NCBI GenBank assembly: GCA_944350275.1
Contig: CALVOK010000011.1
Location: 25,698-89,697, forward strand
Direction: 5' to 3'
DNA from: an uncultured Clostridia bacterium
Lineage (GTDB): Bacteria > Bacillota > Clostridia > Christensenellales > UBA1242
DNA length: 64,000 nucleotides
The notes under the pieces were generated by a model. The model was not told the DNA's origin and did no database searches. It saw only the letters and a program-made list of their open reading frames with translations. Positions 17,462-59,342 of the stretch are shown here, piece after piece. The stretch's first letter is position 1. Each line of letters starts with the position of its first letter. The translations under genes and the position numbers were made by a program.

Positions 17462-17571
17462 GTACAATAATAACAATTTTATAAAAGAATAAAAATCTTG
17501 AATTAAGTAAAAGTAAGGAACTGTTTTAGTTGTTTGACGTAAATACAAAAGACAATGTAAAAGAGAAAAAT

Positions 17572-18201
17572 ATGGACTTAAATGAATTTTATAGTGAATT
17601 GGATAATCTATTCCCTGAGCCTAAATGTGAACTAGAGTATAAAAGCACATATCAGTTACTGGTTGCCGTTATACTTTCTGCACAGTGTACAGATAGAAGA
17701 GTGAATATTGTGACAAAAGAGTTGTTTAAAGAGTATGATACACCAGAAAAAATGCTTAAATTGTCGCAAAGTGAACTTGAAAATAAAATACATTCAGTTG
17801 GATTTTATCACAACAAAGCAAAAAATATACTTTCTATGAGCAGAGACCTTATTGAAAAATTTAATGGAGAAGTGCCAAAGGATATTGAAAAATTACAAAC
17901 TCTTGCGGGAGTGGGACGTAAAACTGCAAATGTTGTTTTTTCTGAGGCATTTAAAGGAGATGCCATTGCAGTTGATACTCATGTACTGCGTGTTTCAAAT
18001 AGGTTAGGATTTGTAAAAACAGATAATCCATATAAATGCGAACTTGCTTTAATGAATCTTTTTGATAAGAGTAGGTGGGGAAAACTTCATCTTCAACTTG
18101 TTCATTTTGGAAGGTATATTTGCAAGGCAGTAAAACCTAAATGCTCTGAGTGTCCATTCACTAATAATTGCATCTATTATGCATTGCATAATACTAAATA
18201 A
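17572..18201 (+). CDS. nth: Endonuclease III
   Basis: HhH-GPD region (LAGVGRKTANVV, DTHV) and C-terminal 4Fe-4S cluster C..(6)..C..C..(5)..C. ATG at 17572 preferred. Confidence 0.88.
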   Translation: MDLNEFYSELDNLFPEPKCELEYKSTYQLLVAVILSAQCTDRRVNIVTKELFKEYDTPEKMLKLSQSELENKIHSVGFYHNKAKNILSMSRDLIEKFNGEVPKDIEKLQTLAGVGRKTANVVFSEAFKGDAIAVDTHVLRVSNRLGFVKTDNPYKCELALMNLFDKSRWGKLHLQLVHFGRYICKAVKPKCSECPFTNNCIYYALHNTK

Positions 18202-18237
18202 TGCATTATGTATGCAGGACATAATACTATATATTGT
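18174..18237 (-). repeat. Full 64-bp copy of the dispersed composite repeat (reverse orientation)
   Basis: The reverse complement aligns gap-free to 59279-59342 with 53/64 identities by hand alignment. The palindromic end lies within the last codons of nth. Confidence 0.8.
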
Positions 18238-18331
18238 AGTTATTTAAAGATAATTGCTAATACTTATCATGAAATATCCAAAATGAGTATTTAGGAAAAA
18301 GCAAAGAGTGCTAGAAAAGGGGTAAAATTAT

Positions 18332-19600
18332 ATGTTTCTTGACAGAGTAAAAATTTCAATAAAGGCTGGAAATGGTGGAAATGGTTCTACTTCTTTTTTG
18401 CGTAATGCAATGACTGCAAAGGGGGGTCCAGATGGTGGAGAAGGAGGTAAAGGTGGTGATGTGATTTTTAAGGCAACTCAATCACTTAATACCCTGTATG
18501 ATTTTCGTTTTCACAAAAAATTTATAGCAGAAAATGGCGAAAATGGCTCAAAAAAACTTAAGTCTGGCGCTAATGGCAAGAATATTGTAATTAGTGTGCC
18601 TTGTGGTACTGTTATTATTGATGCTAAAACAAATAAAGTAATTGCTGATTTAAATGAGGACGGCATGGAATTTGTTGCCCTGAAAGGAGGAAAAGGTGGG
18701 CATGGGAATGCATACTACAAGTCATCTATAAAACAGACTCCCCATTATTCTCAAACTGGGGAAATAACTGTTGCTCATGAAGTCATCCTTGAACTTAAAA
18801 CAATAGCAGATGTTGGTCTTGTTGGATTTCCAAATGTTGGAAAGTCTACTTTGCTGTCCTGCGTTTCAAATGCAAATCCTAAAATTGCAAATTATCCTTT
18901 TACAACTTTATATCCGAATCTTGCTGTTTGTGAAGTTAAAGGACAGACCTTTGTTGTAGCGGATATTCCAGGACTTATTGAGGGAGCAAGTGAAGGACAA
19001 GGTTTGGGACATTACTTTTTGAAACACGTAGAAAGAGTAAGACTTATTTTGCATTTAGTAGATATATCACAAAGTGATGGTAGGGATTTTATTAACGATT
19101 ATAAAATAATTAATAGCGAGTTAAAAAAATATAGTGAGGAACTTGTAAGGACACCTCAAATTGTAGTGTTTACTAAAGTTGACCTATTAGATGAAAAGAC
19201 TCTAACCGAAAGGCTTAATAGGTTTAACTCTAATGTGGGAGAAAGTTATATTTGTATATCAGGAGCAACATATCAGGGCATTGAAAATCTTAAACTTTTA
19301 ACACTAGAAAAACTAAGCAAAATTCCTAAAAAACCACCTTTATTAGTTGAAGATTATGACTTTGATAAGAGAGATTATTCTTCATTACAAATAACAAGAG
19401 ATGACGATGGTTCCTTTGTCGTTAGCGGTGGAAAGATTGATAATTTTATTCGAGGAGTAGTCCTTTCTGATACTAGGTCTTTTGCTTATTTTCAAAATAG
19501 GCTGCAAGAAATGGGTATTATAGATTTATTGAAAGAAAAAGGGCTCAAGAATGGAGGAATTGTCAAAATAAAAGATATAACATTTGAATATACTGAATAA
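18332..19600 (+). CDS. obg: GTPase Obg/CgtA
   Basis: Glycine-rich Obg fold (GNGGNGS, GGPDGGEGGKGG), G domain (GFPNVGKST, DIPGLIEGA), and C-terminal TGS-like OCT domain. Confidence 0.94.
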   Translation: MFLDRVKISIKAGNGGNGSTSFLRNAMTAKGGPDGGEGGKGGDVIFKATQSLNTLYDFRFHKKFIAENGENGSKKLKSGANGKNIVISVPCGTVIIDAKTNKVIADLNEDGMEFVALKGGKGGHGNAYYKSSIKQTPHYSQTGEITVAHEVILELKTIADVGLVGFPNVGKSTLLSCVSNANPKIANYPFTTLYPNLAVCEVKGQTFVVADIPGLIEGASEGQGLGHYFLKHVERVRLILHLVDISQSDGRDFINDYKIINSELKKYSEELVRTPQIVVFTKVDLLDEKTLTERLNRFNSNVGESYICISGATYQGIENLKLLTLEKLSKIPKKPPLLVEDYDFDKRDYSSLQITRDDDGSFVVSGGKIDNFIRGVVLSDTRSFAYFQNRLQEMGIIDLLKEKGLKNGGIVKIKDITFEYTE

Positions 19601-29194: not shown

Positions 29195-29276
29195 GCGGGC
29201 GTGGCGGAATGGCAGACGCGCTTGTTTAAGGGGCAAGTGGGAAACCGTGTGGGTTCGACTCCCACCGCCCGCACCA
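29195..29276 (+). tRNA. tRNA-Leu (type II, long variable arm), anticodon reads AAG, encoded CCA
   Basis: Acceptor stem GCGGGCG/CGCCCGC and D arm GCG-GAATGGCAGA-CGC. Anticodon stem CTTGT/GCAAG with loop TTAAGGG (anticodon at 29228-29230). Variable arm TGGGAAACCGTG and T arm GTGGG-TTCGACT-CCCAC. Confidence 0.9.
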
Positions 29277-29280
29277 GAGC

Positions 29281-29305
29281 AAAAATCTCGAAAGAGATTT
29301 TTTTT
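29281..29305 (+). terminator. Intrinsic terminator after tRNA-Leu
   Basis: AAATCTC-gaaa-GAGATTT followed by a T-run. Confidence 0.75.
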
Positions 29306-29317
29306 GATTAAGTATAA

Positions 29318-29398
29318 GTGGGAGTCGAACCCAAGGGTTCACAAGGGTTCCCTGAAAATCGTAAGATTTTTAGGGTAAGGCTCCCACCGCCCGCACCA
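29318..29398 (+). repeat. Inverted T-arm fragment (29318-29333) plus 64-nt repeat copy B (29335-29398), which ends in an exact duplicate of the tRNA-Leu 3' end
   Basis: GTGGGAGTCGAACCCA is the reverse complement of the tRNA T arm. CTCCCACCGCCCGCACCA (29381-29398) is identical to 29259-29276. There is an internal 11-bp hairpin CCCTGAAAATC-gtaa-GATTTTTAGGG. Confidence 0.85.
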
Positions 29399-29550
29399 AA
29401 CAAAAATAATCCGAGATTTTTATTCGAGGGTTATTTTTTTGTACTTTTATTTCTTATTTTTTCACTATTCGCTCTTCTTTCCTCGGATTATATTTGAAAT
29501 AAGAAAGAAAAAAGAGAAATGAAAAGTTGAGAATAAGGACAATTTTCACT

Positions 29551-29621
29551 GGGTTTACAAGGGTACCCTGAAAATCGTAAGATTTTTAGGGTAAGGTTCC
29601 CACCGTCCGCACCAGAGCAAA
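29551..29621 (+). repeat. 64-nt repeat copy C, ending in a diverged tRNA-Leu 3' end plus the flank GAGCAAA
   Basis: GGGTTTACAAGGGTACCCTGAAAATCGTAAGATTTTTAGGGTAAGGTTCCCACCGTCCGCACCA, compared with copy B. The following GAGCAAA matches the sequence after the genuine tRNA. Confidence 0.85.
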
Positions 29622-33951: not shown

Positions 33952-34842
33952 TTAATCATCTATAAGTTTCTCAAAATCTTTTGGAAAGGGTACTGAAAAA
34001 GTTAGTGTCTCTTGCTTAAAAGGATGATAAAATGAAACATCTTTACAAATAAGGGCAGTGTGGTTAATCGTTTGAGTTTTATTTCCATAAAGTTCATCGC
34101 CAAGCAGGGCATGTCCTATACTTGAAAGATGCACTCTTATTTGATGAGTTCTGCCATGGATAAGGTTTACACTTATAAGAGTAAACTTTTTTATTTGATT
34201 ATCTTCCTTTATCTCGCAAATTTTAATAGGACGTACAAAGGTCTTTGCATCTTTGCCGTCAAATGCTATCTCTCTTTTCTTATTATTGATTTTATCCTTA
34301 GAAGTGGTTTTTATCTTTTTATCAATTACTAAATCTCTATCTATAACGCCCTCGCATATGGCATAATAGGTCTTATTTATATCCTTAATTTCTTTTTGTG
34401 AAATGCTATCTTTTGCAACAATCACAATACCTGATGTGTCTTTATCTATTCTGTTTATAATTCTCAAAGTGAAGTTTGGGTCTTTGTCTTTCATATAAAA
34501 ACATATTCCGCCTGCAAGGTTAAAGGAATAATGCGATTTGCTAGGCATACTAGCAAGTCCTGCTGGTTTATTGATTAGTAAGTAGTATTCATCTTCATAT
34601 ACTATATCTAGTGGTAGTATGCATTGCATAATAGTAGTTTTGTTGTTAGGATTTGAATTGATGGCAAGGTCATCACCAATAGAAAGAGAATGGTTGATTG
34701 TAACATCATTGCCGTTTACTTTGATATATCCCATATGTTTTCTTAGATTTGTAATAAAGTTTTCTGAAAAATCGTTGTCTTTCAAGAAAAAGTAAATGGT
34801 AGAATAGTTTTTTGTTATTTGATAGTGCTGATATTTTATCAT
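33952..34842 (-). CDS. RluA-family pseudouridine synthase
   Basis: S4-like N-terminus, catalytic Asp region RIDKDTSGIVIVAK, and HGRTHQIRVHL. Confidence 0.87.
   Translation of the reverse strand: MIKYQHYQITKNYSTIYFFLKDNDFSENFITNLRKHMGYIKVNGNDVTINHSLSIGDDLAINSNPNNKTTIMQCILPLDIVYEDEYYLLINKPAGLASMPSKSHYSFNLAGGICFYMKDKDPNFTLRIINRIDKDTSGIVIVAKDSISQKEIKDINKTYYAICEGVIDRDLVIDKKIKTTSKDKINNKKREIAFDGKDAKTFVRPIKICEIKEDNQIKKFTLISVNLIHGRTHQIRVHLSSIGHALLGDELYGNKTQTINHTALICKDVSFYHPFKQETLTFSVPFPKDFEKLIDD
34615..34636. repeat. Palindromic core copy (TAGTATGCATTGCATAATAGTA) inside the rluA-family CDS
   Basis: Matches the TATGCATTGCATAATAG core of the dispersed palindrome. It encodes ...TTIMQCILP... on the minus strand. 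Confidence 0.7.
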
Positions 34843-35096: not shown

Positions 35097-35693
35097 GTTT
35101 AAAAGCGATGATGAAAGACTAGTAGCAAGATGTAGTTATCTCAGAGAGCCTATAAGTTGCTGTAATATAGGCATAATAAACCTTGTGAATTCACTTTCTA
35201 GCCACATTTATGAAACTATTTTTCTTAATGCGAAACTTATAAAATGTGTTTGTATCAGTAGCGAATTTAGTAATGATTCTATAAGATGAGTGTAAAAAAT
35301 AGCTCTAATCTCTGCGTAAAAGATAAAGTTATAAAGACAAAATCTTATGTTTTATTAAATGATGGAAAATAGGTGTAGTTTATGTCGTAAAACCTGCGTT
35401 AAAGGTAATTAAGGATTGAATTTATATAAAAAATAGAGCGAGTGTTAAGTTAAAAATGCGGTTTTATCTTACTTTCTTAGGATTTGGATGGTATAACAGA
35501 TAAAAAGCACAAAACGCAAAAGATTTAAAGCAAAAGAAGTTATCTCACAATTTGGAAACATCACTTTTTATGTCTCGCAAGATTGGTTATTGTTTATACT
35601 TTTAATGGCTTGTGGATATATAGATTCAATTAAAATTAGGTGGTACCACGAAGAGACCTTCTTTCGTCCTAATACGAGAGGGTCTTTATTTGT
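35097..35693 (+). promoter_or_regulatory. T-box riboswitch leader, Phe specifier UUC (35190-35192), about 600 nt long
   Basis: Stem I has a GCGATGA K-turn region, AGTA, the AGAGAG motif, and distal loop AGTTGCTGTAA. The specifier loop is GAA-TTC-A between the GAAAG/CTTTC and GCAAG/CTTGT stems. T-box AATTAGGTGGTACCACG at 35634-35650. Terminator AGACCTTC...GAGGGTCT plus TTTATTT at 35654-35693. Confidence 0.85.
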
Positions 35694-41512: not shown

Positions 41513-41678
41513 TTGTATTTTGGAAGGAATAATAATTAAGTTTAAAATGAACACTATCATTTTAAAATTTACCACAATAGAGTATGCATAATGCTTTATA
41601 TTTATAAAATCAACATTTATAAATTTTCATATTATGCAATATATATCAAAAATTCATGCATAAATATACAAAAATCCC

Positions 41679-41800: not shown

Positions 41801-42253
41801 ATGGCAAGGAGTGCAAGACAATCAAAAATCTTAGAACTTATATCTACAAAGGAAATTGAAACTCAAGATGAACTTGCAAGAGAGTTGAGAAATGCGAATT
41901 TTGATATTACTCAAGCAACTATTTCAAGAGACATCAAGGAACTTGGATTAACTAAAATATTGTCTAGTTCGGGGAAATATAAGTACTGCTTTGTTGGTTC
42001 TGACGAACAGGTTATTTCAAATAAATACATAACAATTTTTAAAGAGTCAGTTATATCTGTTAAAGTTGCTATGAATCTTGTTGTTATTAAAACTATGAAA
42101 GGACTTGGTTCAGGATTAAGTAGTTTTGTAGATAAACTCAATATTAATGAACTTATGGGTGCCGTTAATGGTGATGATACAGTTATGCTTATTTTCCCTA
42201 CAACCACACTTGCAAGTCAAGCAGTTGTAACTTTAAATGATATGTTAAATTAA
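41801..42253 (+). CDS. argR: Arginine repressor ArgR/AhrC
   Basis: 150 aa with winged-helix N-terminus (RQSKILELI...TQATISRDIKEL) and C-terminal oligomerisation domain (GDDTVMLIF). Confidence 0.9.
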   Translation: MARSARQSKILELISTKEIETQDELARELRNANFDITQATISRDIKELGLTKILSSSGKYKYCFVGSDEQVISNKYITIFKESVISVKVAMNLVVIKTMKGLGSGLSSFVDKLNINELMGAVNGDDTVMLIFPTTTLASQAVVTLNDMLN

Positions 42254-45453: not shown

Positions 45454-46488
45454 TTAAGAATTTATTTTTATTATTTCAGCAACATTCTTTCTCATATCTT
45501 CGCTAATTGCTGCATAGTGCTTTTTCGTTGTATTTACATCTTTATGACCAAGTACATCTGCAACAATATAAATATCCCTAGTTTCTTTATACAAATTTGT
45601 ACCAAAAGTACTTCGCAATTTATGAGGAGAAATTTTCTTCAGTGGCGAGGCAATCTGTGCATATTTTTTTACCAAGTTCTCAACTGCTCTAATAGAAATT
45701 CTCTTGCTTTTCAAGGAGATAAACATTGCGTTTTCATCTTCAGGTAAACCTAATGTGGCACGTTTTTCAAGCCATGTTTTTAGAGCGAGGGCGACTTCTT
45801 TAGAAAAATAAAGGGTAGTTTGATTTCCGCCTTTACGAGTGACTAAAAAAGCATTTTGACTAAAATCAAAACTTTCAATGTTGAGTCCAACAAGTTCTGA
45901 TATACGTATGCCTGTTCCTAAAAAAAGTGTTACAATAGCATTATCTCTTTCAAACGTTTTTTTACTATATTCTTGTTGACGTTTAGTTAATTGTATTGGG
46001 TTTTCTATTGTTTCCATCAATTTTTTAACTTCGTTTTTTTCAAGTCTTATAATTTCTTTATTATGTAGTTTTGGAGTATCAATTTTACTTGCAACATTGG
46101 ATTCAATTAAATCATGATTAAATAAATATTTAAAGAAACTTCGCAGTGATGCCAATTTCCTTGCTTTACCTTTTTCATCATTTTTGTATTGTTTGCCATC
46201 CAATTCATAGTAAGAAAGGTAGGAAAGATATTGCTCCAAATTTCTTGATTTTAACTTATTAAGGTCATCCAAAGTTATGTCGATTTCTTTCTTTTTAAAC
46301 ACATAATTACCTAGATAATTAAAGAAAATATACAGATCCATTGAATAGTTGTACCTAGTAAGCGAAGAGGTGTTATTTTCAATACCTATAAAATAGTCAA
46401 GACAATAATCAGGGAGTCTTTCAGTGTACTTCGACATTTTTAGTCTGTTTTCTAAATCTCGTTGTTCATAAAAACTTAATTTTTTCAT
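45454..46488 (-). CDS. Tyrosine recombinase, XerS-like architecture
   Basis: Catalytic contexts GTGIRISEL (Arg), HKLRSTFGT (H-x-x-R) and LGHKDVNTTKKHY (His/Tyr). VTRKGG motif and N-terminal LPDYCLDYF...YNYSMDLYIFFNYL resemble XerS-type rather than classical XerC/D N-termini. Confidence 0.8.
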   Translation of the reverse strand: MKKLSFYEQRDLENRLKMSKYTERLPDYCLDYFIGIENNTSSLTRYNYSMDLYIFFNYLGNYVFKKKEIDITLDDLNKLKSRNLEQYLSYLSYYELDGKQYKNDEKGKARKLASLRSFFKYLFNHDLIESNVASKIDTPKLHNKEIIRLEKNEVKKLMETIENPIQLTKRQQEYSKKTFERDNAIVTLFLGTGIRISELVGLNIESFDFSQNAFLVTRKGGNQTTLYFSKEVALALKTWLEKRATLGLPEDENAMFISLKSKRISIRAVENLVKKYAQIASPLKKISPHKLRSTFGTNLYKETRDIYIVADVLGHKDVNTTKKHYAAISEDMRKNVAEIIKINS

Positions 46489-46783: not shown

Positions 46784-48073
46784 ATGATAGATATTAATTT
46801 GATAAGAACAAATCCTGAACTTGTAAAAGAGAACATTAGAAAGAAATTTCAAGATATAAAAATTGAATATGTTGACCGAGTTTTAATCCTTGACGAAAAG
46901 ATAAGAAATCTCAAGAAAGAAGGAGATAGTCTTAGAGCATCAAGGAATTCTCTGAGTAGTCAAATAGGCATCTTCATGAAAGATAAAAAAATTGAAGAGG
47001 CCAATAAAATTAAAGAACAAGTTGTCGCTAACAATAAGAGAATTGAAGAAATAGAGATTGAAGAAAATAAATTTTCTGGCGAACTTAAAAACTTGATGAT
47101 GTCCATTCCTAATATAATTGCAGTTGATGTGCCAATTGGAAAAGATGACAGCGAGAATGTGCAAAGGCTAACTGTAGGTGAGGCAAAAATACCTGATTTT
47201 GATATTCCTTATCATACTGATATACTTGAAAGTTTAAACGGACTTGATCTAGACAGTGCTAGAAGAACAAGCGGAAATGGTTTTTATTATTTAGTAGGTG
47301 ATGTTGCACGACTTCATTCATCAATTCTTTCTTATGCAAGAGATTTTATGATAAATAAGGGTTTTACCTATTGCATTCCTCCTTTTATGATAAGGAGTGA
47401 TGTAGTTAATGGTGTTATGAGTTTTGAAGAAATGGAAAATATGATGTATAAGATTGAAGGAGAAGATCTCTATCTTATTGGCACAAGTGAACATTCAATG
47501 ATTGGAAGATTTAAGGATACAATTTTAAAAGAAGAGGATTTGCCATTATGTCTTACCTCATATTCTCCATGTTTTAGAAAGGAAGTTGGAGCACACGGAA
47601 TTGAAGAGCGCGGAATTTATCGTGTTCATCAATTCGAAAAACAGGAAATGATTGTTATCTGCAAACCTGAAGATTCTATGGAGTGGTATAACAAAATGTG
47701 GCAAATTTCATCTGAGTTTTTTAGTACTTTAAATATTCCTCATGAAGTTATGGAGTGTTGCAGTGGTGATCTAGCAGACCTTAAAGTTAAATCATGCGAC
47801 CTCAATGCATGGAGCCCTCGCCAAAAACGTTACTTTGGGGAACTTGGCTCTTGCTCAAATCTTTCAGATGCTCAAGCAAGGCGTCTTGGTATAAAGTTCA
47901 AGTCAAAGGATGGAACTAAATTTGCTCACACCTTAAATAATACAGTAGTGGCACCACCAAGAATGTTAATTGCATTTTTAGAAAACAACTTAAATGCAGA
48001 TGGTAGTGTAAATATACCAGAGGTATTAAGATCATACATGGGTGGAAAAAGCATAATTTATCCTAAGAAGTAA
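46784..48073 (+). CDS. serS: Serine--tRNA ligase
   Basis: N-terminal coiled-coil arm and class II motifs (FRKEVGAHG...RVHQFEK, TLNNTVVAPPRMLIA). Confidence 0.94.
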   Translation: MIDINLIRTNPELVKENIRKKFQDIKIEYVDRVLILDEKIRNLKKEGDSLRASRNSLSSQIGIFMKDKKIEEANKIKEQVVANNKRIEEIEIEENKFSGELKNLMMSIPNIIAVDVPIGKDDSENVQRLTVGEAKIPDFDIPYHTDILESLNGLDLDSARRTSGNGFYYLVGDVARLHSSILSYARDFMINKGFTYCIPPFMIRSDVVNGVMSFEEMENMMYKIEGEDLYLIGTSEHSMIGRFKDTILKEEDLPLCLTSYSPCFRKEVGAHGIEERGIYRVHQFEKQEMIVICKPEDSMEWYNKMWQISSEFFSTLNIPHEVMECCSGDLADLKVKSCDLNAWSPRQKRYFGELGSCSNLSDAQARRLGIKFKSKDGTKFAHTLNNTVVAPPRMLIAFLENNLNADGSVNIPEVLRSYMGGKSIIYPKK

Positions 48074-48084
48074 GGGAAATTGCT

Positions 48085-49056
48085 ATGTCAAATGTAAATA
48101 TTTCAAAGGATATTATAAACAACATTGCAAACCAAGAAAACAAAAAATTTGTTAAAAATATTAACAAATTAATAATGCAATTGGTTAATGATTCAATGCA
48201 AGATTTATCTAATAGCATATCGTTTATTTCGGCCAAAAATGTTGTTTTACAGCCTATCAATGAATTAGTCAGTGGTGCGTTTATTGATGCATCAAATTTT
48301 GTCTATTTGTTGGGCATAGAAAATATTCAATTAGAATTAAATACTGCCAAAAAGATGTCGTTTTTGCGAAATTTAAAAGAGAGATTTAAATATGCTTGGC
48401 AAAATAGAAAGTTGATTTATAAGCGAAGGAAAAAACATCGTAAAAAATCAAAAAAGGAATTGGAGAAGATAGAAGATAAAAAAGAAGTAGATTTTAATAA
48501 TTATACAATATATAGCCTTGCTGAAGATTTACAAAATTCTATTGTTAATTACTTATCGGAAACAAGTATGGTTTACTTGAATGGTAATCTGTTGCAAATT
48601 ATTGGTAAAGATGATTTTGGCTCAAACACAAAGATATTTATATATGTGGTAAGTTATGATGGAACAAATTATAAATATTATGCTGGAAAGAAAAAAGGAT
48701 ATATTAATATAAATGTCAATGGCCGTGTAGATAAATTGTCATCAAAAATGCAGACAGCAGGTGAAAATTTTATAAAAATTTTGAAAATTTTGAATACTCT
48801 TTACTATAATACAAACGGATATATGTGTAATCAAATCTTTATGGAGAGCATTTTATGTTCCGTGCCAGAAGACTTATTTTTTGGTTTAGATATTTATAAT
48901 GTTTTTGTTAAAATTATAAATTATTTATCTATAACATCATTTAAAAATATTAAATCAATAAACAACTATGATTTAACAATATTTAATGATGTAGTATGTG
49001 GGAATTGCATGCTTGGATTTAATAAAATGATGAATAAAATTATAACAAAAAATTAG
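48085..49056 (+). CDS. Hypothetical protein (possibly a degenerate nucleotidyltransferase-fold protein)
   Basis: FIKILKILNTLYYNTNGYMCNQIFMESIL resembles the lRllKhW...S.hlE helix pair of OAS/CD-NTase-like NTases. No GS...DxD catalytic motif is evident. Lys-rich central linker. Confidence 0.45.
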   Translation: MSNVNISKDIINNIANQENKKFVKNINKLIMQLVNDSMQDLSNSISFISAKNVVLQPINELVSGAFIDASNFVYLLGIENIQLELNTAKKMSFLRNLKERFKYAWQNRKLIYKRRKKHRKKSKKELEKIEDKKEVDFNNYTIYSLAEDLQNSIVNYLSETSMVYLNGNLLQIIGKDDFGSNTKIFIYVVSYDGTNYKYYAGKKKGYININVNGRVDKLSSKMQTAGENFIKILKILNTLYYNTNGYMCNQIFMESILCSVPEDLFFGLDIYNVFVKIINYLSITSFKNIKSINNYDLTIFNDVVCGNCMLGFNKMMNKIITKN

Positions 49057-49119
49057 CATGATTCACTTTTATTATGTAAATGTTTTTAACTTATTTTATA
49101 TTTTAAAAGGATTAAGTTT

Positions 49120-49915
49120 ATGATTGGCGCTTTGGTTGGAGATATAGTTGGCTCGATTTATGAATTTAATAACCTCAAAACAAAAAGTTTTTTATTATTT
49201 TCTCCAAATTGTTTCTTTACAGATGACACCGTTATGACAATAGCAGTGGCAAAAGCACTTATAGACTGCAAGGGTAATTATGCTAACTTAGAATCATTAA
49301 CAATAAAAAACTTGCAGTTTTTTTGGGTCTAAGTATCCAAATTTAAGTTACGGTTTAATGTTCAAACATTGGTTGTCAGAAAAAAATCCTAAGCCTTATT
49401 ATAGTTTTGGAAATGGTGCCGCCATGAGAATTTCTCCAGTTGCATATTTTGCAAAATCAGAGCAAGAACTAAAAGAACTATCTTATAAAGTAACAAAGGT
49501 TACCCACAATCATCCAGAAGGTTTAAAGGGCGCTGAGGCCACAGCAATAGCCGTGTGGCTTGCACTTCACAAAAAATCTAAAGAAGAAATAAAACATTAT
49601 ATTGAGAAATACTATTATTCGCTTGACTTTAATTATAATAATTTGATAGAGACATATGAATTCAACGAATCCTGTCAAAAGACTGTTCCGCAAGCAATTT
49701 ATTGTTTTTTAATAAGCAAATCATTTGAAGATGCAATAAGAATTGGAGTTTCTATTGGAGGAGATACTGATACAATATGTGCAATAATTGGAGGAATAGC
49801 AGAAGCATATTACGGGGGAGTTCCTAAAGATATAGCCTGTCAAGCCTTAAATTTTTTAGATAAATATTTACTTAAGGTTTATAAAAAAATACAAAAAAAG
49901 ATAAATTACAACTAA
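49120..49915 (+). pseudogene. ADP-ribosylglycohydrolase (ARH/DraG family) frameshifted in a T7 tract (49318-49324)
   Basis: The N-terminal part (GALVGDIVGSIYEF...FTDDTVMT) is in frame 1 and the remainder (GNGAAMRISPVAY...GGDTDTICAIIGGIAEAYYG) in frame 2. Removing one T gives ...NLQFFGSKYPNLSYGLMFKHWL... Confidence 0.78.
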
Positions 49916-51265
49916 ACATTTTTACCAAATGTACTTTATAATAAAATTATGTGATGATAAAATTTAAACAAGTCAAGTTTTAATTTTTTCTAAGCGCAAA
50001 ATACACACTAAATTGTGTGTCATCCACATAGTATGTAAAACCAATCAGGCTTACTTTTGCAAGCAAGTTGGACTTTCGATAATATAAAATACAGCCAATA
50101 GGAAAATCCTATAAATTTGCTTGCTAACACGAACTTAATATGAATTTATATAATAATACGACACGAATGTCGCAGATAAAAATCTATGATTGTAAAAGAA
50201 TTTGTTATACAAAAGATATACAGAATAAACTGAGGTATCTAAATAAAAACTGTAAAAATATGCATTTAATTGTATAGTTTGCAGACAATATTACATTATA
50301 TATTTATAGCAAATCAGTTTAATTTTCGACAATGCAAAACTAAGAATAAAGCCACGGATAAAAGTTAGCAAAATGTAAAAGTAAAAACAAAATTACTTTA
50401 TAGTAGTAATCTACAATTTTTAATATAGTTAACAAAAGCCATATTTTAATATAGTTATAAAAAAATAACATAATAGATTATTTTTTCATGCTATTATGCG
50501 TGTATCTATTCGTAAAACTTGTGTTTTGCGAATAGATATGAATGTGTTGACTTTTAAATTTCTGTTTACTTTTTATTTCCCTAATAAAATTTTAACACAT
50601 AAAATTCATCATAAATAAACAAATACTAGACCACTTTACACTAATCCCGTAGGTTTAATACAACCCTTTGTTATCAGAACAAGAAAACAAAATTTTCTTG
50701 TGAATAGCACATGTGGAAAATATAAATCATAAAACAATTAAAGTGAAAACTTAAAATTTACATACTTTAAACAATTTAAATTCATTAAATTTTATTACTC
50801 CCCTATAAAAATTTACACTCTCCTTTCAATTTGTTTTAAAATGTCATTAGCGAAAGTTTTTAAACCTAATCTTCTTATTATGTTAAGTCGTCTATGTTTA
50901 TATGATTCACTTATGTTTTCCTTTCGACAAATTTTACAAAAAGTATACATATTTTCGTGACATCTCTTATATGGCTAAAGTAATTATTTGTGTTCTTCTA
51001 TACCCATCGTCATAAACTAATATTAGACATAAATTATTTTATAATTTGTTTTCTTTATCAATCTTTTATCCTCTAGCCAACACATTTTTTGTTTTGTTTG
51101 GCTTGTATAGTAAAATAGTCTTATTTGTCATACATGTTTTATGCAGCCCTAGCACTACACTTCAAAAGAGTTTATTTCCCTTTTTATACATAAAAAATCA
51201 TGCATACTCTATTTGTAAATGTACACTATTTTCGTTTGAGTTATAATTATAGTTTTTATATTACT

Positions 51266-51868
51266 TTATAGAATTTTGCTTGTTAGAAGAAAACTGAACT
51301 TTTTTAGTTCTTCTTTTATTTCTTTATAGTTGGGTATATATTGCCCTACTAATGACCAAAAATATTTCGAGTGATTAAATTCTTGACTGTGACATAATTC
51401 GTGAATTATAATGTATACAATTAGTTCTTTCGGTAATATAACAATTTTCCAATTTAGTTTCATTCTTTTGTTGCTGTCAAGACTCCCCCATACTCTCTTA
51501 GAATTCACTATTGATAAAGACGTATAATATAAATTGCATCTTATTGATAATTCATGTACCATTGGTTTAATATAATTTAAAAATGCATTTCTATAAAATG
51601 TATCCTTCTTGATGTTGCCAAAAGGCATAGCATTGTTAAAAATATAACCATAATTTTCAAAATCATAGGTTGATTTTACCTTGTTCATATTATCTATTTT
51701 TTCGATATGTTTTTCTATCCATTTTCTTTTTGCTTTGATAAAATCTATTATTTTTTCGTTAGATAAAGACTTAGGAGCATAAAGACTTATCTCTCCATTA
51801 TTAGATATTTTTAATCTTATATTTTTGTATTTACCTCTTATAATATCAATATGATGTTTATTATCCAT
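51266..51868 (-). CDS. YgjP-like (DUF45/M48-related) zinc metallohydrolase
   Basis: HELCHSQEFNHSKYFW motif near the C-terminus and a typical YgjP N-terminus (IRLKISNNGEISLYAP). The ATG at 51868 lies 6 nt after a TATAAT. Confidence 0.75.
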   Translation of the reverse strand: MDNKHHIDIIRGKYKNIRLKISNNGEISLYAPKSLSNEKIIDFIKAKRKWIEKHIEKIDNMNKVKSTYDFENYGYIFNNAMPFGNIKKDTFYRNAFLNYIKPMVHELSIRCNLYYTSLSIVNSKRVWGSLDSNKRMKLNWKIVILPKELIVYIIIHELCHSQEFNHSKYFWSLVGQYIPNYKEIKEELKKFSFLLTSKIL

Positions 51869-51920
51869 TAGAATATTATACATAAAATTTAAAAATTTTA
51901 CAAAGAAATTGTATATTTTT

Positions 51921-51949
51921 TTAACTATTATGCATTGCATAATAGTTAA
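51921..51949. repeat. Perfect 29-bp palindrome TTAACTATTATGCA-T-TGCATAATAGTTAA between divergent promoters
   Basis: The 14-nt left arm is the exact reverse complement of the 14-nt right arm around T51935. Same core as the other dispersed copies. Confidence 0.9.
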
Positions 51950-52027
51950 AAATGTTTTTTAAACAAATTAATTAAAAATTGTTGACTAATTTTAAATATT
52001 AGTTTATAATTCTATTAGAGGTTTAAT

Positions 52028-53887
52028 ATGGATTTATATGCAAAAGGACAACTTTCATTTTTAATTTTAAATTGCCTATTAGAACGTGATTTTTATGGAC
52101 TTGATTTAATTACAGAAATATATAACAAATCTAATGGAAGAATTGAACTGAAAAAACCAAGTGTTTATTCCAACCTCACTAGAATGGAAAAACAAGGTTA
52201 TGTGTCTTCATATATGCGGAGTAGCGATTTAGGACCAAATAGAAAATATTATTCTATAACTGAACGAGGTCGTATATTTTATCAAGATTTAAAAAATTAT
52301 TTTGATAGAAATAATATTGACGTCTTTAGAGATTTTAAAGATTTTGAGGCTACAACTAATGCTACAGTTAACGTTAGAGAATCAAATGCAAGTTATAATA
52401 ATGTAAATTATTTTTCTTTAAATAAAACTCAATCATCAAGTCAAAAAGATATTTCGAATATGCAAAATGAAAATATTGAAGAAAATGAAACTAGTGATGA
52501 TGACTATTTTGATTTTTCAAGTTTGGATGAAAAAGATAATACAAATGATATCATCTCTGAGGAAAGTTCAGTCCAGGGAAATAGTGAAAACGAAAATAGC
52601 ATAAAGTCTATACAACAAAATAATGCGGTCCAAACTGATTCATATTCAATCAAGTCACTGTATACTGATACAGATATAAATAGCAATGATAAGAATGAAT
52701 TTGTAAACAAAGTCACTAAAGAAGATAAAGATTTACTGGAAAGTGATGAATCACAAAAAGCAAGTAGTTCTGACACTGTAGTTGTAGATGAAGAGATTAA
52801 ACACGAAGAAGTAAAAAAGGATGATGCCGTATTTTTAAATAGTAAGGATGTAGAAGAATATAATAAACGTCTATATGATATTTCTAAAGATATAAATAAA
52901 TATAAACGTAAAAAGAGTTTTGCGGAGGACCAAATCGCTTTTCAAGTTGAAAACTCCTCACCTATTAGCGAGGCAAATGAACGTACAAAATCAAATATAG
53001 AAGACTTTAAAAATTCTATCCTTGAAAATAAGGGCAAAACTAATGCAACTTATGATTATTCAAAACAGGTTGCATATCGTTTTAATAAAGACAATATGTC
53101 ATATCAAGACATATTGAACACTAATAAAACGCAAAAGAAAGAAGAAATAGTAAAAGACGACGGAAAGTTTATAACAAGCAGAATAGAAGAAACTCAAGTT
53201 GAACACGCAAGAAAAATTGAACCACCTCGATTAAAAATTGTGACTGAAACAAGTAGTCGTGATAACAGTTATAAAATGCCACCACCAAAACGAGACAAGA
53301 CAATTGATCCATCTCACAAGGAAATATTATCAAGACTTTATTCTAAAACTAAGACAGGTAATAATGAAGAAGTAAGAGCGGATGCATTGTATGATTACAA
53401 CGATTTAAGAGACTTCTACAATGATCAAAACATATCTTTTAATGAGTATCAAAAACCTGCTGAAAAAACTGAGCACAACACGAATTTATTATATTTGATA
53501 GTATCTGTTGCTACATTTTTCTTGACGACTATCATTTCTGCTGTGCTATATGGAATATTATCAAGTTCAAGTTTAATAAATAATTCAACAAGTTTCTTAT
53601 ATATTTTGTTGCCTGCCCTGCTATTGATTGATATTGCAATAAAATTTTATAATTATAAAAAATATAAGAGTTGGATGCCAAATCCCCTTCTTCAGCAATG
53701 GAAAATCTGGGGAATAACATTTCTTTTCTCTGCTATTGTTGTAGGTTTAAATTTTATTTGTGGAATGTCCACAACAAACTTTGCTGACTTTGCAACAACA
53801 ACCCTCCTTCCTATATTGTTAGCATTTATTATTCTACCAGGAAGATATTATTTGAATAGATTTCTCTTAATTAAATATTGGAGATAA
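52028..53887 (+). CDS. PadR-family winged-helix regulator fused to a long low-complexity linker and a C-terminal 4-TM domain
   Basis: N-terminus LSFLILNCLLERDFYGLDLITEI...KPSVYSNLTRMEKQGYV...KYYSITERG is PadR-like. It is followed by about 400 aa rich in N/S/D/E/K, then four hydrophobic helices. Promoter TTGACT-N17-TATAAT at 51982-52010. Confidence 0.65.
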   Translation: MDLYAKGQLSFLILNCLLERDFYGLDLITEIYNKSNGRIELKKPSVYSNLTRMEKQGYVSSYMRSSDLGPNRKYYSITERGRIFYQDLKNYFDRNNIDVFRDFKDFEATTNATVNVRESNASYNNVNYFSLNKTQSSSQKDISNMQNENIEENETSDDDYFDFSSLDEKDNTNDIISEESSVQGNSENENSIKSIQQNNAVQTDSYSIKSLYTDTDINSNDKNEFVNKVTKEDKDLLESDESQKASSSDTVVVDEEIKHEEVKKDDAVFLNSKDVEEYNKRLYDISKDINKYKRKKSFAEDQIAFQVENSSPISEANERTKSNIEDFKNSILENKGKTNATYDYSKQVAYRFNKDNMSYQDILNTNKTQKKEEIVKDDGKFITSRIEETQVEHARKIEPPRLKIVTETSSRDNSYKMPPPKRDKTIDPSHKEILSRLYSKTKTGNNEEVRADALYDYNDLRDFYNDQNISFNEYQKPAEKTEHNTNLLYLIVSVATFFLTTIISAVLYGILSSSSLINNSTSFLYILLPALLLIDIAIKFYNYKKYKSWMPNPLLQQWKIWGITFLFSAIVVGLNFICGMSTTNFADFATTTLLPILLAFIILPGRYYLNRFLLIKYWR

Positions 53888-53900
53888 AATCTCCTAATTT

Positions 53901-54503
53901 TCACTGCTTTCTACCCTTATTCGTACTAATGAGAGAAAAAATCAAGTCTCCTAGCATAACTACTATAATAATAACCAATGTTATCATGAAAATATAAGTG
54001 ATGGAGTTTTCAAAAATAGAGCATAGCAACAAAGTTGAACTTGTGGAAATTAGTGAGCCTATTGTGATAGACAGAAAGGCATAGTGTATATTAAGATTTG
54101 ATAGTCCAGCAATTAAACTACCTGTCCACACACCTGTAAGTGGAAGCGGAACGGCAACAAAAACACCTAGTGCAATATATTTTTTGATAGTAGAAGATTT
54201 ATTTTGTATATTTTGACTTCGTAATTTGTATTTTTGTAAAAATTTATTTGTAATAAATCCTGTGGTTTTTTGTCTAAGTTTGCGAATAATAAACATTATT
54301 ACATAACTGGGTATAATTGAACCTACAAATGATAGCAAAAATGCTGACAAAGGTGATAAGATATTGCTTCCCCAAATAGCAGTATTCAAAGCAAGTGGCA
54401 ATGATATTTTGCTTTCCAAGGTTGGACACATTGCAACTAAAATAATAACAAGCCAGACACAGTTGGAAAAGTTTTGTCTAAAAAAATCTAAAATATAATC
54501 CAT
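53901..54503 (-). CDS. COG2426-type small membrane protein (annotated in databases as putative small multidrug export protein)
   Basis: 200 aa with about 5 TM helices. The N-terminal pattern LVAMCPTLESKISLPLAL resembles that family. Confidence 0.5.
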   Translation of the reverse strand: MDYILDFFRQNFSNCVWLVIILVAMCPTLESKISLPLALNTAIWGSNILSPLSAFLLSFVGSIIPSYVIMFIIRKLRQKTTGFITNKFLQKYKLRSQNIQNKSSTIKKYIALGVFVAVPLPLTGVWTGSLIAGLSNLNIHYAFLSITIGSLISTSSTLLLCSIFENSITYIFMITLVIIIVVMLGDLIFSLISTNKGRKQ

Positions 54504-58067: not shown

Positions 58068-59195
<1,128 letters not shown>

Positions 59196-59278: not shown

Positions 59279-59342
59279 ACAACATATAGTATTATGTCTC
59301 GCATACATATATGTATATTTAGTATTATGTATTGCATAATAG
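59279..59342 (+). repeat. Full 64-bp copy of the dispersed composite repeat, filling the queA-tgt junction
   Basis: ACAACATATAGTATTATGTCTCGCATACATATATGTATATTTAGTATTATGTATTGCATAATAG. It ends 1 nt before the queA stop codon (59343-59345). Confidence 0.8.

Follow-up and report, generated by a model that had tools for sequence, protein, structure and literature searches.

Why should a sequence of 64 bp recur, in both orientations, between housekeeping genes of an uncultured Clostridia bacterium? The question is raised by positions 59279-59342 of the window (the whole stretch of 64,000 nucleotides analyzed here), which a preliminary description took for a dispersed composite repeat and, tentatively, for a REP/BIME-like element, an RNA processing or attenuation module, or a protein-binding cassette. 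Its basic observations hold: the segment reads as quoted; the reverse complement of 18174-18237 aligns to it without gaps at 53 of 64 positions (a repeat search gives 70 nt at 83%); a 42-bp short form is present at 11-52; and the palindromic end of the long copies lies, as described, 1 nt from the queA stop codon and within the last nine codons of nth. What changes is the unit of repetition. The three copies originally counted comprise the long pair and the short form, all of which stand, but the core unit, a 19-bp palindrome TATTATGCA-W-TGCATAATA that forms the right end of the 64-bp element, has five copies in the window. Nor do these lie exactly at gene junctions, as had been stated: one of the five is inside the rluD coding sequence (CDS), so the sites are not strictly junctional. 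The sites and the genes around them are as follows; Pfam confirms the names nth, obg, queA, and tgt.

33-51, no strand: palindrome TATTATGCAATGCATAATA of the short composite (11-52), in the spoVAEB/yunB interval
17530-18201: nth
18175-18193, no strand: strong palindrome within the last nine nth codons, read as YYALHN
18208-18226, plus strand: weak site ATGTATGCAGGACATAATA, 33 bp from the strong site at 18175-18193
18227-18239: end module CTATATATTGTAG, directly after the weak site at 18208-18226, facing obg
18332-19600: obg
33952-34842, minus strand: gene for an RluD-type pseudouridine synthase
34615-34633, no strand: palindrome inside the rluD-like CDS (a minus-strand gene), read T-I-M-Q-C-I-L
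50490-50500, plus strand: half-site GCTATTATGCG standing alone, with 3 bp between it and the candidate dif (50504-50537); its membership of the system is uncertain
51926-51944, no strand: palindrome in the promoter region that separates the divergent ygjP-like and PadR-like genes
58068-59195, minus strand: tgt
59279-59289, minus strand: end module ACAACATATAG, outer end of the queA/tgt composite, facing tgt
59290-59308, minus strand: weak site TATTATGTCTCGCATACAT (plus-strand letters), 33 bp from the strong site at 59323-59341
59323-59341, no strand: strong palindrome, 1 nt 3' of the queA stop codon
59343-60401, minus strand: queA (stop codon 59343-59345)
L175 2047-2098: degenerate composite starting at the TAG stop of sigF, 4.4 kb left of the window in the same species

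Just beyond the window edge are the spoIIA and spoVA operons.

Five copies of the 19-bp palindrome, at up to two mismatches, are present in the window; chance would give 0.12, and none of 100 shuffles reaches five. The minimal 7-5-7 form, TAKTATG-N5-CATAMTA, also occurs five times, against 0.3 expected. A perfect palindrome, S-TATTATGCA-W-TGCATAATA-S, is the proposed high-affinity form. Fragments previously reported at 35568 and 28865 do exist, at chance level. The former, a 12-mer at 35568-35579, had been placed inside the pheS T-box, but Rfam locates the T-box at 35099-35251, so that the 12-mer falls outside the matched element. This pheS leader (35099-35251) scores 56.5 bits against an Rfam gathering cut-off of 93 (E 1.5e-11), and a default Rfam scan therefore misses it.

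The window holds further repeated motifs. In the region 29195-29621, a tRNA-Leu (29195-29276) is followed by two direct repeats of ~70 nt, 90% alike, which terminate in the manner of a tRNA 3' end (...CCCACCGCCCGCACCA); neither ARAGORN nor Rfam calls either repeat a tRNA, and the repeats could be tRNA remnants or attachment-site duplications. The motifs TATTATGCAATAT and GCATAATGC at 41576-41642 lie upstream of argR (41801-42253), and L185 has a similar sequence ahead of its argR; they are probably ARG boxes and no part of the palindrome family. The palindrome itself was compared with an ArgR box, argR being present in the window, and this candidate was rejected on a half-site order and spacing unlike TGMAT-W4-ATKCA.

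The 64-bp composite can be resolved into a strong site, a weaker site 33 bp away (center to center), and a short AT-rich end. The weak copy reads TATTATG-TCTCG-CATACAT (ATGTATG-CAGGA-CATAATA on the other strand) and is followed by the AT-rich end CTATATRTTGT, within which CTATATRT is conserved; in the degenerate sigF composite, TAGTATGCCACGCATATTA is followed 33 bp further on by ATGTATGCAAGACATACTA. The distance between strong and weak sites takes only two values, 33 or 43 bp, which lie 10 bp, or one helical turn, apart. The shorter spacing is found at nth/obg and queA/tgt of the window, in L049/L160, in L159, and in the sigF composite, and the longer one at nth/obg of L022 and of L104/L141 (the last two near-identical at that junction). 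The strong and weak sites thus occupy the same face of the helix, the layout that cooperative binding by two dimers would need.

PadR genes and the candidate binder

At the level of sequence, the palindrome is firmly associated with PadR genes, well beyond the Clostridia. In 1.16 Mb of DNA from several phyla, fetched by DNA pattern alone, there are 18 PadR-like open reading frames (ORFs), 10 of them confirmed as Pfam PF03551. All but one (17/18) start no more than 576 bp downstream of an exact palindrome, and 13 of the 18 no more than 132 bp downstream; the eighteenth, in L159, has a two-mismatch copy upstream of its own gene, and no PadR-like ORF was found away from the palindrome in this pattern-fetched DNA. 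The sources include Bacteroidota, Nitrospirales, a Pseudolactococcus, and others. In L115, L018, L065, and L040, the gene 3' of the PadR gene encodes a membrane protein of HAAS-PspC-LiaF_TM-Toastrack architecture, and L135 has a weak HAAS match in this position. A dyad of HAAS and PadR proteins, with PspC/Toastrack envelope-stress systems, has already been described (PMC11237479), and the gene neighborhoods suggest that the palindrome is the operator of this signaling dyad.

The window contains a PadR-like gene of its own, directly downstream of one palindrome:

51266-51868, minus strand: gene of a YgjP-like metallopeptidase, transcribed away from the PadR-like gene, with an operator region common to both
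51903-51875: promoter TTGTAA-17-TATAAT of the YgjP-like gene
51982-52010, plus strand: sigma-A-type promoter TTGACT-17-TATAAT of the PadR-like gene
52028-53887, plus strand: PadR-like gene, candidate binder, 619 aa

The 619-aa product comprises a PadR winged helix (aa 1-103), a low-complexity linker of ~370 aa, and C-terminal transmembrane helices. It matches PF03551 with 64.3 bits (cut-off 27; E 1e-17), its best PDB matches are PadR/LmrR proteins, and its DNA-binding domain aligns to the structures of LmrR, cdPadR1, and AphA; HAAS, PspC, and Toastrack domains are not detected in it. The same architecture is shared by more than 225 homologs (clusters), none of them named. These are 44-100% identical overall, with near-invariant first 103 residues, and such constancy of the DNA-binding domain matches a conserved target.

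In 10 of 12 clade species, TAKTATG-N5-CATAMTA is found upstream of the TTGACT-17-TATAAT promoter of this gene. The distance from site to -35 element is 24-27 bp in seven species and 34-37 bp in three, again one helical turn apart. The site thus falls around -70 or -80 relative to a near-consensus promoter that it does not overlap, an unusual placement for a PadR repressor; its position one or two helical turns 5' of the -35 element of the gene's own promoter points to autoregulation. The divergent YgjP-like gene is apparently leaderless, its promoter ending 6 nt before the ATG at 51868, and no Shine-Dalgarno sequence is seen (51866-51903).

The feature is real and conserved, and it is most likely a variant of the known operators of PadR-family transcription factors. 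Of the identities first proposed, the protein-binding cassette has gained support, in the specific form of a PadR-family operator: the 64-bp repeat is probably an operator pair for a dimeric PadR-family winged-helix protein, most likely the 52028-53887 product, and the palindromes in general are most likely the operators of this membrane-anchored regulator encoded nearby. With its PadR domain, disordered linker of ~370 residues, and membrane helices, this protein would be the likely binder; two dimers would occupy the strong and weak operators cooperatively, and the protein would regulate its own gene through the site upstream of its promoter. The sites at spoVAEB/yunB, nth/obg, rluD, queA/tgt, and the sigF stop would be additional targets of the same protein. 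We infer binding by the 52028-53887 protein specifically, cooperativity within the strong-weak pairs, and the functional outcome. No sigma-70-like promoter is found in the queA/tgt composite, and only weak ones at nth/obg, so that a transcriptional role at these two junctions is not evident; the most economical inference is that, bound between co-directional genes, the protein could act there as an insulator or a roadblock. Its membrane anchor means that binding would also keep the terminus-proximal region near the membrane.

Two features of the site itself sit less comfortably with a PadR operator: its ATGY/RCAT repeats are 3 bp apart, compared with 6-8 bp in characterized PadR operators, and its promoter position is at about -70/-80 rather than over the promoter. 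A literature search for the motif string returned nothing relevant.

Conserved positions and the replication terminus

A pattern scan of species-representative genomes returned matches of which those listed include many unrelated sequences and, in addition, low-GC 'uncultured Clostridia', relatives that share 50-97% protein identity with the window. Among the matches listed, at least 17 come from closer relatives and lie in the same places as in the window; these listed matches place a site in rluD in at least nine species, between the ygjP-like and PadR-like genes in at least three, at nth/obg and upstream of yunB in at least two each, and at queA/tgt in at least one. A more distant clade (L010, L029) has one site in rluD and one at pheT/nifS. 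A complete scan of 241 million metagenome records yielded 52 matches to the exact palindrome, of which seven come from the clade, all seven at junctions occupied in the window. Orthologous sites were located upstream of yunB (L086, L117), at nth/obg (L022, L104, L141), and at queA/tgt (L049, L159, L160), and the site inside rluD is kept in at least 15 species. A search for conservation in relatives had been proposed at the outset, and it finds sites at the same junctions in many related uncultured Clostridia. By an estimate that rests on sampled loci, a genome carries about five to six sites at orthologous positions; from this placement and the small number of matches at the sampled loci, the palindromes form a low-copy, positionally conserved family and no genome-wide repeat.

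The replication terminus lies within the window. Left of ~50.5 kb the GC skew is +0.19, right of it -0.13, the genes converge there, and both skew and gene orientation flip at ~50-52 kb (side region 48000-54000); six relatives (L170, L172, L173, L185, L186, L078) show this flip at the orthologous locus. In L173 (1-22283), the two chromosome arms have changed places symmetrically about the PadR-like/dif locus, with strands inverted and with ruvCAB-queA-tgt now on the left and spoIVB-recN-argR-thiI-nifS-pheT on the right. Two further features of the window lie close to this point:

45454-46488, minus strand: Xer-like tyrosine recombinase, 344 aa, 4 kb from the dif-like site
50504-50537: candidate dif, a 34-bp palindrome ATCTATTCGTAAAAC-TTGT-GTTTTGCGAATAGAT, in a 1.35-kb gene-free gap

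The dif-like palindrome is kept in all relatives covering the region (L172 9768-9803, L170, L173, L185-L188), with conserved arms and a center that differs (CTTGTG or CCTGTC); its arms resemble those of difSL and difH (PMC5357621). XerS is the best NCBIfam match of the recombinase, the only one in the window, with a score below the cut-off. The palindrome at 50504-50537 is a candidate dif site of the single-recombinase type. An operator half-site, GCTAKTATGCG, lies 3 bp to its left in every relative examined, and a mirror half-site, GCATAYTAG, lies to its right in four relatives (e.g. L172 9752-9822).

Several smaller observations concern the same region. The half-sites, the dif-like palindrome, and a T-run form nested inverted repeats that resemble a long bidirectional terminator. 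The gene-free stretch (49916-51265; 1.35 kb) has a G+C fraction of 0.26 and contains a conserved small hairpin block, GTTATAAAAAAATAAC, at ~50454-50469; it is preceded at 49358-49915 by a truncated ADP-ribosylglycohydrolase ORF that matches profile positions 118-283 only. A Xer arm was rejected as the identity of the palindrome, which has only TATGC in common with the dif-like arms and whose TTATG resemblance to XerD arms is wrongly oriented.

Given this setting, the sites might be mainly chromosomal, that is, bound by a membrane-anchored protein that organizes or anchors the terminus in the manner of MatP/matS, XerD sites, or RTP/Ter. The flip in skew and orientation at one locus in six relatives, one of them with swapped arms, fits such a role, as do the six sites of the window genome (sigF composite included), all of which lie within -55 to +9 kb of the candidate dif, and the half-site flanking the dif-like site in every relative. 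The conserved rluD site is intragenic, where promoter control is unlikely, and the protein is tethered to the membrane via a very long linker. Most sampled clade sites fall within this ~64-kb block, four low-GC matches being elsewhere or in unplaced DNA; the clustering could, however, reflect mere proximity to the regulator's own gene. Moreover, small autoregulated PadR genes of the ordinary kind use the same palindrome in other phyla, the promoter phasing looks transcriptional, and the composites are aligned with transcription and with replication alike. On either arm, a fork heading for the terminus meets the strong site of a full composite first, copy 1 being reversed; by analogy with RTP, both arms would then have sites in the blocking orientation, the wrong polarity for a fork trap, and no RTP sequence similarity is found at E 0.01. 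A replication fork trap was accordingly discarded as a candidate, its polarity rule, by which forks may pass into the terminus but not out of it, being applied by analogy. A mainly chromosomal function is, on balance, unlikely. There is a similarly slim chance that the membrane-anchored PadR-domain protein encoded beside dif binds the conserved terminus-flanking sites, and maybe the dif half-sites, thereby tethering or marking the terminus at the membrane. It would then be a functional analog of MatP/matS or of XerD-binding sites, built on a transcription-factor fold. To our knowledge, no terminus-anchoring system has been described in Firmicutes; if the link to the terminus is functional, it bears on how Firmicutes position their terminus.

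Not every relative follows the pattern. L172 and L184/L185 encode PadR-like proteins with intact DNA-binding domains; in the 21-42 kb sampled, the promoter palindrome and the queA/tgt site are absent, and in L184/L185 the rluD site as well. A Gly-to-Lys/Asn change after the recognition helix was considered as a correlate of site loss and rejected, as P0029 has Lys and keeps its operator. Conversely, four low-GC Clostridia matches lie in DNA without a counterpart in the window: L001 (near a tRNA and cmk), L021 (between spoIIIAB and spoIIIAD of the spoIIIA operon), L023 (upstream of a spoVT-like gene), and L002. Both sets of exceptions count against the PadR-operator reading. They also leave room for a different transcription factor, for example a sporulation regulator, whose regulon would include the PadR-like promoter as one target among several: two species keep the PadR-like protein without the sites, and the sporulation neighbors comprise the sigF stop, spoVAEB/yunB, the spoIIIA operon (L021), and spoVT (L023). 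The exact association of palindrome and PadR genes across unrelated phyla would, however, be hard to explain otherwise, and the motif is unlike the sporulation sigma and SpoIIID consensus sequences (compared by eye), which makes another regulator improbable. Promoters for sporulation sigma F/G/E/K were sought by eye through their -35/-10 spacings, and none fits across the copies; an apparent SpoIIID match, GGnnAnAnTA, in one copy is absent from the other copies.

Constraint on DNA rather than RNA

Of the earlier proposals, the RNA module would place a hairpin between genes, acting in processing, stability, or attenuation. Such a role would suit sites that lie within co-directional arrays and composites that are oriented with transcription, and 51918-51952, to which the 51926-51944 palindrome is extended, folds strongly (z -6.3) and was flagged as terminator-like. 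This stem extension is restricted to the window species, and no plus-strand gene lies upstream of it. Folding covered both strands of both composites and two single sites: the composites reach z values of only -0.5 to -1.9, with different folds for the two long copies. No intrinsic terminator (G+C-rich stem plus U-run) was found at either composite, copy 1 runs opposite to transcription, and Rfam has no match for the repeat, either at the gathering cut-off or at E up to 10.

The pattern of variation argues in the same direction. The check for compensatory changes that had been recommended came out negative. All palindrome variants are one-sided, with a single arm changed, and the substitutions break pairs; the queA-tgt variant would give a C-A mismatch in the sense RNA. 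With a hairpin model applied to 37 distinct sites, no compensatory changes were found: pairing at least as good as that observed arises in 447 of 500 column shuffles, and shuffled columns score higher on average for covariation. In this genome of ~31% G+C, 64 of 67 half-sites have G or C as the first base beyond the 19-mer; these G/C bases on the two sides are not complementary to each other, which fits half-site recognition by a protein and not a stem.

Coding sequence provides another view of the constraint. The same 19-mer is translated in two reading frames, as IMQCIL in rluD and as YYALHN in the C-terminal tail of nth, so that the DNA, and not the peptide, is the constant. Four rluD samples are unbiased in this respect, L182 and L183 having been chosen by peptide motif only and L010 and L029 fetched for another site; all four use the palindromic codons ACT/AGT ATT ATG CAT TGC ATA ATA, including the rare TGC, and their neighboring codons differ at synonymous positions. 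In L184 the rluD peptide is ETKSCIL, and the left half-site is gone. The comparisons thus locate the constraint on the palindrome at the DNA level and not at the RNA level; one-sided variants and two-frame translation point to a double-stranded DNA site for a dimeric protein rather than to an RNA or a REP element. An RNA module is accordingly very improbable.

A REP/BIME-like or miniature mobile repeat, suggested by a dispersed palindrome without evident coding capacity that occurs at gene ends in both orientations, is scarcely credible given the very low copy number (52 exact matches in the metagenome records), where REP/BIME elements run to tens or hundreds of extragenic copies per genome, orthologous positions kept despite saturated synonymous divergence, one copy within a CDS, no target-site duplications, no variable presence among close relatives, no blastn match of the repeat to plasmids and phages, only four matches, all unrelated, in a scan of viral contigs, and no RAYT-like gene in the window.

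Comparison with known systems

Read as PadR-family operators, the palindromes turn a puzzling dispersed repeat into a concrete and testable protein-DNA system, and an operator sequence can be assigned both to the widespread nameless family represented in the window and to the HAAS-PadR dyads of other phyla. What is unusual is a regulator joined covalently to a membrane anchor through a very long disordered linker; sites inside housekeeping operons and even a CDS, where they override codon choice; paired sites that hold their helical phase across species; and a set of sites arranged around the replication terminus and a candidate dif of the single-recombinase type.

The closest relatives of the site are PadR operators. 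ATGY/RCAT (ATGT/ACAT) inverted repeats are the classical PadR motif, and a winged-helix dimer is the expected reader of a PadR-type site (PMC5050560). The box of the PadR-family protein AphA, ATATGCA-N6-TGCATAT, has a half-site, TATGCA, identical to that of the window palindrome (PMC3440409). The operators of Bacillus subtilis PadR and Lactococcus lactis LmrR read ATGT-N8-ACAT, and that of Clostridioides difficile cdPadR1 reads TACT-N11-12-AGTA; the window site reads TATT-ATGC-AWT-GCAT-AATA, with variants ATGT-AAT-ACAT in Bacteroidota. Like these operators, it is dyad-symmetric, is ~19-21 bp long, contains ATGY/RCAT cores, and lies upstream of the regulator's own gene. Unlike them, it has cores 3 bp apart instead of ~8 bp (6 bp between the AphA 7-mers); its outer 7-mers TAKTATG/CATAMTA are 12 bp apart center to center, which suits a winged helix-turn-helix (wHTH) dimer. 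Further differences are the location 5' of the -35 element and not over the promoter, the additional conserved sites at gene junctions and inside a gene, and the fusion of the regulator to a membrane anchor.

The HAAS-PadR dyads (PMC11237479) resemble the window system in that the same palindrome precedes small PadR genes and a PadR domain is coupled to a membrane component. In the window, however, the PadR and membrane parts form one polypeptide, joined by a disordered linker of ~370 aa, and there are multiple operators versus one.

ToxR, CadC, and BcrR are membrane-bound one-component regulators, in which a tethered DNA-binding domain captures targets near its own gene. The window protein is likewise a membrane-tethered DNA-binding domain with chromosomal targets close to its gene. 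It differs from them in its PadR wHTH fold, in a C-terminal, multi-pass anchor, in a far longer linker, and in that no periplasmic sensor domain is evident.

MatP/matS, RTP/Ter, and XerD-binding sites are site families associated with the terminus. As in these families, a few short palindromes lie around the terminus and dif at conserved positions, some of them within genes, and as in rtp/TerI, the gene of the candidate binder adjoins one of its sites at the terminus. The differences are that Pfam finds PadR only, that there is no RTP match, and that the polarity is unfit for a fork trap.

With REP/BIME elements, finally, the sites share imperfect palindromes, gene 3' ends, and both orientations. 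They differ in having ~5-6 copies (from the sampled loci) at orthologous positions, one of them within a CDS, and in the conservation of sequence rather than structure.
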